DNA of 64,000 nucleotides from Escherichia coli (GCF_017348835.2 NZ_CP071375.1); one strand, 5' to 3'; shown: positions 23,388-28,418, counted from the stretch's first letter. A program made the numbers and translations. The notes: a model not told the origin generated them from the letters alone.

Positions 23388-24274
23388 TGCCACTGCTGGA
23401 TAAGCTGCGTGAGCAGTACGGGGTCGGACCGGTATGCAGCGAACTGCATATTGCCCCGTCAACGTATTACCATTGTCAGCAACAGCGACATCATCCGGAT
23501 AAACGCAGTGCCCGTGCGCAGCACGATGACTGGCTGAAGAAAGAGATACAGCGCGTATACGATGAAAATCACCAGGTATACGGTGTGCGTAAAGTCTGGC
23601 GTCAGTTGTTACGGGAAGGTATCAGAGTGGCCAGATGCACTGTGGCACGTCTCATGGCAGTTATGGGACTTGCCGGTGTTCTCCGGGGTAAAAAGGTCCG
23701 CACTACCGTCAGCCGGAAAGCCGTTGCCGCATGCGACCGCGTAAACCGTCAGTTCGTGGCAGAACGTCCAGACCAGTTGTGGGTGGCTGATTTTACCTGG
23801 GTAAGCACATGGCAGGGCTTCGTTTATGTGGCGTTCATCATTGATGTGTTCGCCGGATACATCGTGGGATGGCAGGTCTCATCATCCATGGAAACAACAT
23901 TCGTGCTGGATGCACTGGAGCAGGCGTTGTGGGCCCGTCGGCCGTCCGGCACAATCCATCACAGTGATAAAGGTTCTCAGTATGTATCGCTGGCCTACAC
24001 GCAGCGGCTTAAGGAAGCCGGATTACTGGCATCAACAGGGAGTACTGGCGACTCGTATGACAACGCGATGGCTGAGAGCATCAATGGTCTTTACAAAGCG
24101 GAGGTAATACACCGTAAGAGCTGGAAAAACCGGACAGAAGTGGAACTGGCCACACTAACGTGGGTGGACTGGTATAACAATCGACGATTGCTGGAAAGGC
24201 TGGGCCATATTCCTCCGGCAGAAGCAGAAAAAGCTTATTATGCTTCCATCGGAAATAATGATCTGGCAGCCTGA
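23387..24274 (+). CDS. IS3-family transposase OrfB (DDE catalytic domain; normally expressed as OrfAB fusion by -1 frameshift)
   Basis: 295-aa ORF overlapping OrfA stop in -1 frame; DDE-type integrase-core features (…HSDKGSQYVS…); A-rich run ggaaaaaataatg at the overlap. Confidence 0.85.
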   Translation: MPLLDKLREQYGVGPVCSELHIAPSTYYHCQQQRHHPDKRSARAQHDDWLKKEIQRVYDENHQVYGVRKVWRQLLREGIRVARCTVARLMAVMGLAGVLRGKKVRTTVSRKAVAACDRVNRQFVAERPDQLWVADFTWVSTWQGFVYVAFIIDVFAGYIVGWQVSSSMETTFVLDALEQALWARRPSGTIHHSDKGSQYVSLAYTQRLKEAGLLASTGSTGDSYDNAMAESINGLYKAEVIHRKSWKNRTEVELATLTWVDWYNNRRLLERLGHIPPAEAEKAYYASIGNNDLAA

Positions 24275-24366
24275 GTTCACAGATAAAACACTCTCCAGGA
24301 AACCCGGGGCGGTTCAGTATAATGCCACTGCATAACTGATTCCCATTTCGTAGAGGCTGTTAACTC

Positions 24367-24398
24367 TGTATCAAAGTCCTGACAAAGGACTGTATCAA
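24367..24398. promoter_or_regulatory. Operator-like composite repeat upstream of the 534-aa orphan gene
   Basis: tgtatcaa AGTCCT gacaa AGGACT gtatcaa: 6-bp palindromic arms flanked by direct tgtatcaa repeats, about 50 bp upstream of the ATG; function inferred only. Confidence 0.3.
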
Positions 24399-24445
24399 GT
24401 TTCTCTACTGAAACAGCTATGCAATAGACGGAAGAATTTAACATT

Positions 24446-26050
24446 ATGGTAACTAAAAAGGTAAAAACAAACCACCCGTACTATCGTGTTTTATCTGGCA
24501 CCTCCATGCCGTTTCCCCACATACATGAAGCTGTTTCCGAACAGTTGCTTCTACTCATTTTCAAAGCACGCAGATTGTATCTGGATCCAGAATATCGTCC
24601 CTGGTTTGATGAACAACATCGGATTCTCTCGGCATTACGCGCTAACACAAAACTACAAAATATTTTAGAGCAAAATAGAGAGGACTACTCCATAGGTGAG
24701 ACCGATAATCCACTATCTAAAGAGCTGTATGCTGCTTTTCAGGTTATGTGCCATTTATACAATGGTTTTGATAACAGACTCGTCAGCCTGAAAACCTGGG
24801 GAGATATGAACAGGGAACCAACAGCAAAATTTGTCGGCCAAAATAGTGGTGGCTGGAAAACACCTGAGATGGAAGAATTCGTCAGAAACGATTTGTTCAA
24901 TATTCTGACAGATTGCAAAGCTCATTGCTCACCACTTCCCGCTCTGGTTCGACAAGGATATTGCCATCAGGATCTTTCTGTTGCGCACTCATGTACTAAA
25001 GAATTACTGGAACAACTGAACCGATACCATCAAATTGATGAATCAGCGATACTTGCCAGAACCCTTGGTTTGGCTATTAACAACTGCTATCACTCAAAAA
25101 CAGAGATTCCTGAATGGCTTTCTCCTTTTGAAAATGAATACAAAAGTCCCTGGAATTGTGAGAAACCAGATACTAACGATGTGAGTAAACTTAGAAAACA
25201 ATTGCTAACAATCGGGCGTACAGAATTCGTGGACAAAATGTTTTCGCTAGCCAACAAAAATGCAACAAAGATAATATATGATGGATACGTTAAACTTTAT
25301 GCTCTGGAAATATATGAATGGTTAAATAAATTAGTGCAATATTTTAAAGGAAATGATTTTATTCGTTACACCTGGAAATTCACAACAATTATTTCCGATG
25401 AAAGTGACACGATTGAAAACACCACCGCATGGGAAAAAGACTATTGTCAAATCACTATACAGCGCGATGAACTTCTGAAACTGATTTATACCAATACCCT
25501 GCAGGATGCAGCAATGAATCTTGCTGGTTGCCTGCAACAGGCATACATAGAACCGTTAAAAAGGGAAATAAATTATCCAGGAATAAACATTGATGCAAAA
25601 GAGCGTGAAATTAGAAAATCTATTGAATTCAGGAGCGAACTGAATAACTTCACAAACATCATGAAACAACTGGAAACATTTGAAAAATGGTATAATGCCA
25701 ATAAAATTCTGTTGGTAAGTAACAAAAAGAAACGTACAGAAAAGATTGACGTGAATATTCGTCTTGCAGGACTGAAAGGCTATGATCTGAATGAAGGTAT
25801 ACCTGATGGTCAGGGACGCAAAATTAAAGATGGTGTGAATGAACTCGTCAAGGCAGATGGCAGTCTACAACTTCCACAAGATATCAGTGACACTTCGCTT
25901 AACCGTTACCGTCAAGCAGTTCAACACATTATTAAGGATGAGATCGACACGTTGCTGATAGCACAGAGGGAAAAAAATAAAATAAATCCATATAGCGAAG
26001 ATAGATACTCTATACGACCTTTATGGGGAAAATGTCTGGTCGAACAGTAA
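24446..26050 (+). CDS. hypothetical protein, 534 aa, no recognisable family (orphan accessory gene; AT-rich)
   Basis: Long uninterrupted ORF in visibly AT-rich DNA; no P-loop, no transmembrane segments, no signal peptide by eye; Cys/His cluster CKAHC...GYCH...HSC near residues 155-185; not recognised as any K-12 protein. Confidence 0.6.
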   Translation: MVTKKVKTNHPYYRVLSGTSMPFPHIHEAVSEQLLLLIFKARRLYLDPEYRPWFDEQHRILSALRANTKLQNILEQNREDYSIGETDNPLSKELYAAFQVMCHLYNGFDNRLVSLKTWGDMNREPTAKFVGQNSGGWKTPEMEEFVRNDLFNILTDCKAHCSPLPALVRQGYCHQDLSVAHSCTKELLEQLNRYHQIDESAILARTLGLAINNCYHSKTEIPEWLSPFENEYKSPWNCEKPDTNDVSKLRKQLLTIGRTEFVDKMFSLANKNATKIIYDGYVKLYALEIYEWLNKLVQYFKGNDFIRYTWKFTTIISDESDTIENTTAWEKDYCQITIQRDELLKLIYTNTLQDAAMNLAGCLQQAYIEPLKREINYPGINIDAKEREIRKSIEFRSELNNFTNIMKQLETFEKWYNANKILLVSNKKKRTEKIDVNIRLAGLKGYDLNEGIPDGQGRKIKDGVNELVKADGSLQLPQDISDTSLNRYRQAVQHIIKDEIDTLLIAQREKNKINPYSEDRYSIRPLWGKCLVEQ

Positions 26051-26062
26051 CTCACTGAGAAA

Positions 26063-26085
26063 GGGGATAGCAGTTCGCTATCCCC
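26063..26085. terminator. Hairpin between the convergent orphan genes
   Basis: ggggatagc agtt cgctatcccc inverted repeat seen directly; no U-tract. Confidence 0.35.
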
Positions 26086-26132: not shown

Positions 26133-26729
26133 TTATGCGGCTTTACCATTAACAGATTCAGCCACAAGAACGACAGCGTGTCTGTTTCGCTCAGGATGTT
26201 CACTCCAGATTTCTGATTCCGGGATGCTTTTCCCGTCATAACTGATCCGTTCGCCATCAAACGGGTAATACCGTGCGGAATCAGTATCTAAAATAAACAC
26301 CTTCAGATTCGTTGAACGACGCGCAATATGCTGCCAGAGAGCTTTACCTCCTTCATATTGCTCGTTATCACTTAATAGTACAACGCCCGCTTTTGTGACT
26401 ATCGTTTCATAAACAAACGTTGCAAGACCAACATCACGTACAGCGCCATCGACAACAATCCCTTCAATCTGAGCAACATCCTGTTCTTCCCAGAATTTCT
26501 GGACAAACACGCCTTCAAGCCGGGGACGACGCTGAAGCTCCAGAGTGGCAACAACCTTATGGCGAACATCACCATCAATAACAGAAGGTGCAGCTTCGAT
26601 TACCGCAGCAAACGGAGTCTTTGGATCCCAGATGATCTGGTAAAGCACGCCCTGAATAGTTACTCCATCCAGTATCGAAAAACGACGAGCTACAGTAGCA
26701 GGGGAGTAAGACATTGGAATTACAGCCAT
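26133..26729 (-). CDS. hypothetical protein, about 198 aa (orphan accessory gene)
   Basis: Track ORF 26133..26759 starts at a GTG; the downstream ATG at 26729 (MAVIPMSYSPATVARR) is preceded by a good Shine-Dalgarno (agagggga) and is preferred; soluble protein with no recognisable motif; same strand as integrase. Confidence 0.55.
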   Translation of the reverse strand: MAVIPMSYSPATVARRFSILDGVTIQGVLYQIIWDPKTPFAAVIEAAPSVIDGDVRHKVVATLELQRRPRLEGVFVQKFWEEQDVAQIEGIVVDGAVRDVGLATFVYETIVTKAGVVLLSDNEQYEGGKALWQHIARRSTNLKVFILDTDSARYYPFDGERISYDGKSIPESEIWSEHPERNRHAVVLVAESVNGKAA

Positions 26730-28371: not shown

Positions 28372-28418
28372 GACTCATAATCGCTTGGTCGCTGGTTCAA
28401 GTCCAGCAGGGGCCACCA
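28372..28418 (+). tRNA. ileX: tRNA-Ile2 (ileX, anticodon CAU/LAU) 3'-terminal 47-nt fragment; island attachment-site repeat, not a complete tRNA gene
   Basis: GACTCATAATCGCTTGGTCGCTGGTTCAAGTCCAGCAGGGGCCACCA matches the anticodon loop through CCA end of ileX as I recall it; the sequence 5' of it cannot pair with the acceptor 3' strand (no GGCCCCT), so the D-arm and 5' acceptor are absent. Confidence 0.7.

Follow-up and report, generated by a model that had tools for sequence, protein, structure and literature searches.

The late and tail genes of phage P2 hold hotspots for accessory and defence genes (bioRxiv 10.64898/2026.02.27.708500). Most of the P4-satellite loci that were tested in recent work protect against phages (8/11 and 6/8). 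In the phage-inducible chromosomal islands (PICIs) of Escherichia coli, alpA normally lies directly after int (PMC11773190). Here we analysed a stretch of 64,000 nucleotides of E. coli DNA (GCF_017348835.2, NZ_CP071375.1), called the window below, and within it an AT-rich gene for a protein of 534 amino acids (Table 1), which an earlier note on the same DNA had described as probable horizontally acquired cargo. We conclude that this gene belongs to the accessory cargo of a satellite-like integrative island that is now degraded, and that its family travels in the defence hotspots of mobile elements. The gene founds an orphan, previously unannotated protein family, and its siting in phage-defence hotspots therefore makes it a good candidate for a new anti-phage gene.

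The open reading frame (ORF) found in the ORF listing of the window is long and intact, as the earlier note had stated; it starts with ATG and ends with a TAA stop at 26048-26050. Since stops are expected at ~6.5% of codons for the base composition of the ORF, the probability of 534 open codons occurring by chance is ~1e-16. The G+C content, previously estimated by eye to be lower than that of the flanking backbone, was computed as 38.5% (34.8% at third codon positions, GC3), against 51-56% (GC3 57-62%) for the backbone genes gss, pitB, nfeF, nfeR and aer and 51.5% for the whole window. When these five genes were taken as the reference, the codon-adaptation index of the ORF was 0.51, compared with 0.62-0.75 for the backbone genes themselves. 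Low G+C content, poor codon adaptation and a location between an insertion sequence of the IS3 family and a tyrosine integrase gene, near the 3' half of a tRNA, all agree with horizontal acquisition. In the RefSeq annotation of strain PE164, which is 100% identical to the window, the ORF is WP_000256686.1 and bears the label "hypothetical protein"; the same accession is present in strain 2014C-3061, and the DNA of the ORF is 99.9% identical to copies from intact islands. Matches were detected in 433 of 5,426 complete E. coli genomes, every one of them chromosomal (428 at ≥80% gene coverage), the gene or an allele of it being thus present in about 8% of these genomes. The 1,605-nt frame was unbroken in 428 E. 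coli genomes. Comparison with the allele of strain ZJ3920 (98.6% identical) revealed 12 synonymous and 11 non-synonymous differences, corresponding to a ratio of non-synonymous to synonymous rates (dN/dS) of 0.24. The ORF is therefore a genuine, constrained and horizontally mobile gene. A frameshifted fusion of unrelated fragments was ruled out by this unbroken frame and because full-length relatives of 492-548 amino acids exist in at least 12 genera.

The status of the gene as cargo is best seen in the intact islands of E. coli and E. albertii, where it fills the gap between the integrase gene and alpA and is, in E. coli, divergent from alpA; a DUF3987/YfjI primase gene and YagK/YfjJ genes follow. 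Genes in the int-alpA gap are inserted cargo. The related loci of E. coli and E. albertii have integrase, AlpA and primase in this order, of which the window retains the integrase only. Intact islands were found at three attachment sites, namely the tRNA beside nfeF, a site near ssrA, and the tRNA-Thr beside proA. The same E. coli islands also hold a type I restriction-modification (RM) system, or DprA together with a helicase. In an unrelated genome (locus L019), a relative of 27% identity again lies between an integrase gene and alpA, with a PD-T7-5-like gene two genes off; alpA is here downstream of the family gene and co-directional with it. A P2-like prophage of Klebsiella carries a relative as a moron, inserted between its tail genes gpS and gpV. 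Known or candidate defence genes were immediate neighbours of the family in further genomes: a type II methylase and endonuclease in Enterobacter ludwigii, McrB and McrC with a WYL protein in Buttiauxella, AbiO/Nhi (E 5e-173) in Siccibacter, SMODS and S_4TM genes resembling a cyclic-oligonucleotide-based anti-phage signalling system (CBASS) in Aeromonas dhakensis, a weak match to the defence candidate PDC-S15 in Serratia, and type II RM with DUF4145 on a Klebsiella IncFII plasmid. One deposited sequence deserves a separate comment: L036 (NZ_CP010208.1, 'plasmid B' of E. coli M11), of 56 kb, has proA, proB, phoE, crl and frsA beside the island in the order of the chromosome. Typing classed it as a non-mobilizable plasmid, but it has the appearance of a piece of chromosome submitted under that name.

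Relatives of the protein were identified in E. albertii, Klebsiella, Enterobacter, Citrobacter, Serratia, Dickeya, Buttiauxella, Siccibacter, Pantoea, Atlantibacter, Salmonella and Aeromonas, as well as on metagenomic contigs. The family is tiny, with 39 representatives at E≤1e-3 among 1.84 billion cluster representatives, and a profile search of a set of 5.8 billion proteins brought no further relatives. The earlier note had been unable to place the protein in any known family, and neither could we: searches of Pfam (with the protein and all 19 aligned members), NCBIfam, PHROGs, PADLOC and PDB sequences (the last by single sequence and by profile) were all without a match. No database gives the protein a domain, a name or a fold; the family is without relative among known systems and its fold is unmatched in solved structures. 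UniProt names two family members in AFDB (A0ABC7ZZ27 and A0A085GKA2) 'tRNA-dihydrouridine synthase'. Neither the query nor the scanned relatives matched a Dus-family model in Pfam or NCBIfam; the name seems to be a misannotation, and one that may propagate.

We next consider the predicted structure. The protein was described in the earlier note as soluble, without P-loop or transmembrane segment; indeed neither a P-loop nor a hydrophobic stretch is present, the maximum 19-residue Kyte-Doolittle mean being 0.88. An AlphaFold2 model built on 19 sequences (predicted template-modelling score 0.79, mean predicted local distance difference test, pLDDT, 76.7) comprises an all-alpha N-terminal domain (residues ~10-300, pLDDT mostly >85), a beta-hairpin (310-338), a poorly predicted linker region (300-400), and a confidently predicted C-terminal helical domain (400-513). 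The C-terminal third had been thought to be coiled-coil-like, and this view is not supported, as the region is modelled as a compact helical domain with a pLDDT of 85-96 over residues ~400-510. Its supposed richness in K, E and N was retained as a mild enrichment at most (27% in residues 357-534 versus 21% in residues 1-356). When the model was compared with AFDB50 by Foldseek, family members and two uncharacterised proteins (11% identity) were recovered, and nothing else. The only recurring fold signal consisted of weak matches of ~60 residues to helix-turn-helix units of the sigma-70-region-4/TetR type. A helix-turn-helix unit would thus be the only recognisable, if weak, fold element of the model, and the pattern "...LAGLKGYDL...ISDTSLNRYRQAVQHII..." suggests that it may reside in the C-terminal domain.

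Two alignments of 19 sequences each were used, a diverse one (A2, with members down to 19% identity) and a closer one (A1). Across the diverse members 22 positions were invariant: M1, L16, E32, Q33, L37, R42, L44, F54, D109, R169, Y172, H174 and L177 in the N-terminal part, and W310, I336, I338, D447, S481, R487, Q507, P525 and W527 in the hairpin and the C-terminal part. Helical segments at residues ~61-100, 121-140, 201-300 and 361-420 diverge fast. The pair R169-x4-H174 was invariant in 19/19 sequences of both alignments; Y172 was invariant too and G171 nearly so. This pair fits the R-x(4-6)-H motif of the HEPN ribonuclease superfamily. The usual residue after the arginine of the HEPN motif is N, H or D; across the family the residue following R169 is Q, K, G, M or L. 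Structure and sequence comparison detected no HEPN four-helix fold or profile. We regard the HEPN-like spacing as no more than a lead.

The same stretch, CKAHCSPLPALVRQGYCHQDLSVAHSC at residues 157-183, carries the pattern C-x3-C...C-H...H-x-C which the earlier note had proposed as a possible zinc site. The cluster does occur in this allele, and C161, C173, H181 and C183 are found in 14-17 of the 19 sequences of A1, that is in most members from Enterobacterales. In the diverse alignment, however, C157 is kept in 4/19 sequences, C161 in 10/19, C173 in 8/19, H181 in 9/19 and C183 in 8/19, the cysteines being swapped for S, N, R, Y, H and others, and C157 is limited to E. coli alleles. The zinc site fails because all five of these residues vary. 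H174 is the sole invariant Cys or His of the cluster (19/19), and what is conserved in this stretch is R169-x-G171-Y172-x-H174 rather than the set of Cys/His ligands. Moreover, no zinc-finger or zinc-ribbon family or fold was matched. It is hence very improbable that this is a zinc-binding protein whose function depends on the cluster, a reading that the lack of conservation largely refutes.

Every clade has the large protein, but the small genes next to it change from clade to clade. In clade A (E. coli and E. albertii) there is no divergent partner, and only a convergent gene of 198 amino acids is present. In clade B (Klebsiella, Serratia, Enterobacter, Buttiauxella, Siccibacter, Pantoea and plasmids) the large gene is accompanied by a divergent gene for an extremely acidic protein of 145-150 amino acids, which has a D/E/Y-rich tail, is 65-85% identical over six genera and may either mimic DNA or inhibit the large protein. 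The leader region upstream of the acidic gene contains a hairpin-like element that is conserved, GCGAGGCGACATGCCCCGC (locus + strand). In clade C (Atlantibacter, Citrobacter, Aeromonas and other contigs) the divergent genes encode a Gly/Ala-rich protein of ~105 amino acids and a protein of 78-102 amino acids. The Gly/Ala-rich family is wider than that of the large protein (at least 212 clusters at 90% identity, ~100-190 amino acids, no Pfam match). It shows an N-terminal ENPxKS motif and a core AAPAIGAxASAAGLGxAGGTLSGAAASSAGLAALGGGSxASGGLGMAGG, and its members may be membrane effectors. Xanthomonas copies are carried on a MobA element, beside SduA_C (Shedu-type) and reverse-transcriptase genes. 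Pfam returned nothing significant for the acidic, the Gly-rich or the 88-amino-acid partner. A type II toxin-antitoxin pair was rejected, as the partners are divergent (clades B and C) or convergent (198-amino-acid gene) and differ by clade.

The divergent intergenic regions are ~330-375 bp long, with 25-38% G+C, and contain conserved palindromes near the start of the large gene. In clade B the palindrome is TCATCA-CAT-TGATGA. In most clade C loci (L011, L012, L017, L020, L027 and L033) a perfect palindrome, TGTGAT-N4-ATCACA, is placed 10-25 bp upstream of the large gene, just before the ribosome-binding site; it looks like a protein-binding site because it is conserved without covariation. 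It corresponds to the CRP consensus, TGTGA-N6-TCACA, and hints at control by cAMP-CRP or at an autoregulatory operator.

Between E. coli islands, the large proteins are 59% identical, compared with 93% for the 198-amino-acid neighbour and 99% for the integrase. Such divergence of the large protein between otherwise near-identical islands is arms-race-like. The 198-amino-acid neighbour was rejected as an obligate partner, since the two proteins do not diverge in step and the neighbour is found by itself in the P1-like phage-plasmids SJ46 and RCS47; it is probably a separate mobile cargo. Its gene is 83-87% identical in SJ46, RCS47 and vB_EcoM-673R5, and the first 75 residues of the protein resemble P1 PmgF and P7 Upf52.1. 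RefSeq starts this gene at an ATG (198 amino acids), and the ORF listing extends it to a GTG (208 amino acids).

In the window, gss and pitB are followed by a truncated thymidylate-kinase-like pseudogene, the IS3-family element, the 534-amino-acid gene, a hairpin, the 198-amino-acid gene and the tyrosine integrase gene, and then by a tRNA 3' fragment, nfeF, nfeR and aer (Table 1). The tRNA fragment, which we take to match ileX (tRNA-Ile-CAU), is the attachment-site repeat of the island. ARAGORN found no whole tRNA within the window, and the end of the island bearing the intact tRNA is not in the window. Because identity with the intact islands begins at 24317, the IS3 element must have taken the place of all island DNA beyond -129, alpA and the primase gene among it. 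Of the features of a PICI-like or P4-like satellite (integrase, AlpA and primase in order at a tRNA or tmRNA), the integrase gene and the tRNA fragment are left in the window. The remaining upstream region contains a GGAAG ribosome-binding site and a direct repeat, CTGTATCAA (24366-24374 and 24390-24398), flanking a palindrome, AGTCCT-GACAA-AGGACT (24375-24391). Upstream of the gene, an intact island has 780 bp that contain no gene; there Rfam gave one chance sub-threshold snoRNA match only. The hairpin that separates the convergent genes probably terminates transcription in both directions; the terminator scan did not call it because it is without a T-run. Synteny is broken at 22756-24316 and 28372-28418: gss, pitB and the pseudogene are joined via the IS3 element to the integrase-proximal end of the island, the other flank of which is nfeF-nfeR-aer. 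In K-12 the two regions are presumably separated by ~80 kb of DNA that includes essential genes, and an inversion or transposition mediated by IS3 is therefore more likely than a deletion.

Table 1. Coordinates of the features of the window and of the partner genes in related loci (L numbers).
Feature	Position	Strand	Basis or remark
IS3-family element, orfA/orfB with programmed frameshift	23061..24316	+	right end adjoins the upstream region of the gene
Remaining native upstream region, 129 bp	24317..24445	+	identical to strain 2014C-3061 from 24317 on
534-amino-acid gene, WP_000256686.1	24446..26050	+	ORF listing, annotation
Perfect 9-bp hairpin, GGGGATAGC-AGTTC-GCTATCCCC	26063..26085	.	between convergent genes, read off the sequence
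Convergent 198-amino-acid gene, WP_000268404.1, phrog_7522	26133..26729	-	annotation, PHROG match
Tyrosine integrase, 438 amino acids	26859..28175	-	ORF; Arm-DNA-bind_3 and Phage_integrase domains in homologous loci
tRNA 3' 47 nt, anticodon loop CTCATAA, T-arm GGTTCAAGTCC, CCA end	28372..28418	+	
Acidic clade B protein	L003 7225-7662; L015 6205-6651; L023-L026; L035 7215-7664		always divergent from the large gene
Gly/Ala-rich proteins	L011 7344-7667; L012 2274-2588; L017 6304-6627; L019 4891-5217; L020 1261-1560; L033 6001-6318; L031 6001-6477		

On balance we lean slightly towards the 534-amino-acid protein acting against phages or in conflict between mobile elements. The system would then have the large cytoplasmic protein as its unchanging core. 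Recognition of a component of the invader would fall to the fast-diverging helical segments of this protein, and the invariant polar cluster of the N-terminal domain (E32/Q33, R42, D109 and R169-x-G-Y172-x-H174) would supply an activity, plausibly on RNA or DNA, as an active or ligand site that is possibly HEPN-like. The conserved C-terminal helix-turn-helix-like domain would bind nucleic acid; its ligand would be the target itself or else palindromic operators within the AT-rich region upstream of its own gene. In the other clades this core would be combined with exchangeable small divergent genes (the acidic protein of 145 amino acids, or the Gly/Ala-zipper protein of 105 together with one of ~90 amino acids) as modulators or effectors, and the E. 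coli clade of the window would operate without such partners. The more ambitious proposal of a new single-protein immune sensor-effector, with a novel fold, an E-Q/D/R-x-G-Y-x-H site of new or highly diverged nucleic-acid-targeting activity and pluggable output modules (a Gly/Ala-zipper membrane protein or an acidic protein), is tentative and on the whole unlikely; it would amount to a so far undescribed modular architecture of defence.

Siting beside known defence genes or at cargo sites recurs in unrelated genomes, and as support for a role in immunity this association, which was counted without a background comparison, is suggestive. Several observations weigh against such a role. PADLOC-DB 2.0.0, a 2023 library that predates later systems, gave nothing at E≤1 for the protein and three relatives, and NCBIfam and PHROGs gave no match for the same set. 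The literature search for the protein accession returned no mention. When two family members were compared by tblastn with 50,697 deposited phage genomes, no match was obtained. In a Pantoea metagenome-assembled genome the gene pair adjoins ParB-like and PsiA genes, a setting that resembles a plasmid leading region. Such regions are expected to carry anti-defence rather than defence genes. Finally, a consensus scan of the 129-bp upstream region revealed no sigma-70-type promoter, and the copy in the window, cut short upstream by IS3, may be poorly expressed. It could be argued that this copy is decaying or non-functional, having fallen silent after the insertion took the alpA/primase part and all but 129 bp of upstream DNA. 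We consider this quite improbable, as the coding sequence is intact and hardly differs from the intact-island copies, and it is in any case compatible with the other readings. The ends of IS3-family elements can supply outward promoters.

A different function would be chiefly that of a transcription factor, with a large sensor domain joined to a C-terminal helix-turn-helix, which would control the divergent small genes or, in the E. coli islands, the divergent alpA-primase operon in a Stl-like manner; the protein would then take part in phage conflict indirectly at most. The helix-turn-helix matches are the only recurring ones, the AT-rich divergent intergenic regions are constant in length, palindromes are conserved by the start of the large gene in clades B and C, and the gene is divergent from alpA in the E. 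coli islands. However, family members also sit between core genes, on plasmids and at the moron site among the P2 tail genes, settings that offer no island to control, and alpA is not divergent from the family gene in L019. The clade C palindrome may moreover be a host CRP site rather than an operator of the protein itself, and the invariant residues are concentrated in the N-terminal domain and not in the helix-turn-helix-like part alone. These points make a mainly regulatory role improbable. Still less probable is a function in counter-defence or establishment, in which the acidic 145-amino-acid partner would imitate DNA as Ocr and ArdA do, with the large protein as its regulator or co-factor. 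The extreme acidity of the clade B partner with its D/E/Y-rich tail, the Pantoea locus described above and the copies on conjugative IncFII plasmids speak for it. Yet the majority of copies belong to chromosomal islets or are carried by prophages and satellites, beside RM, McrBC, AbiO or CBASS-like genes, and the Klebsiella plasmid pair lies in an IS-rich accessory region with its RM and DUF4145 neighbours, with no leading-region genes annotated within 8 kb. The E. coli clade is without the acidic partner, and the absence of the family from the deposited phage genomes also tells against counter-defence. If the preferred role in immunity is correct, the family would provide a new protein fold for bacterial immunity and a new marker for the annotation of defence islands; the three interchangeable partner sets and the short list of invariant residues offer handles for experiments.

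Among known systems, the closest parallel in genomic behaviour is provided by the P2/P4 hotspot systems (PMC9122126; bioRxiv 10.64898/2026.02.27.708500). As in these systems, an AT-rich accessory gene is exchanged at fixed prophage or satellite positions, very different alleles occur in islands with near-identical core genes, and the family is also found in 'cryptic' chromosomal islets and on plasmids. The positions themselves differ, being the int-alpA gap (PICI-like) and P2 gpS/gpV for the family described here, and P4 psu-int and P2 gpA-gpQ for the known systems, to which the family has no sequence or fold relationship. Crouga, Bandua, Aernus, Toga, Reve and Hailong, newly named systems of P4 hotspots, each contain domains that can be recognised and were set aside as not fitting. 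HepS, the solo HEPN abortive-infection protein of Gifsy-1 (PMC13043305), resembles the 534-amino-acid protein in being a single prophage-borne gene without obligate partner and all-helical with a conserved R-x4-H pair; the 534-amino-acid protein would likewise be sensor and effector in one. However, it has an additional C-terminal helix-turn-helix-like domain and no sequence similarity to HepS, which was rejected as a relative. As to the helix-turn-helix of sigma-70 region 4, LuxR and TetR, the pattern 'ISDTSLNRYRQAVQHII' may resemble a recognition helix, but there is no profile match to any such family, ~30 residues are inserted between the putative helices, and the other 470 residues are without counterpart. 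With Stl of the Staphylococcus aureus pathogenicity islands (SaPIs) and with PICI regulators it has in common an integrase-adjacent position, divergent from the replication/alpA module, a high divergence between islands and a putative DNA-binding domain. The 534-amino-acid protein is presumably twice the size of Stl, and its family, in contrast to these regulators, is also present where no island exists. Gram-negative PICIs are AlpA-controlled with alpA normally right after int (PMC11773190). Its position in satellite, prophage and islet hotspots places the 534-amino-acid gene among the better supported of the candidate immune genes. Cargo that lacks annotation and sits in defence hotspots is of a familiar kind, and the protein family itself is new.

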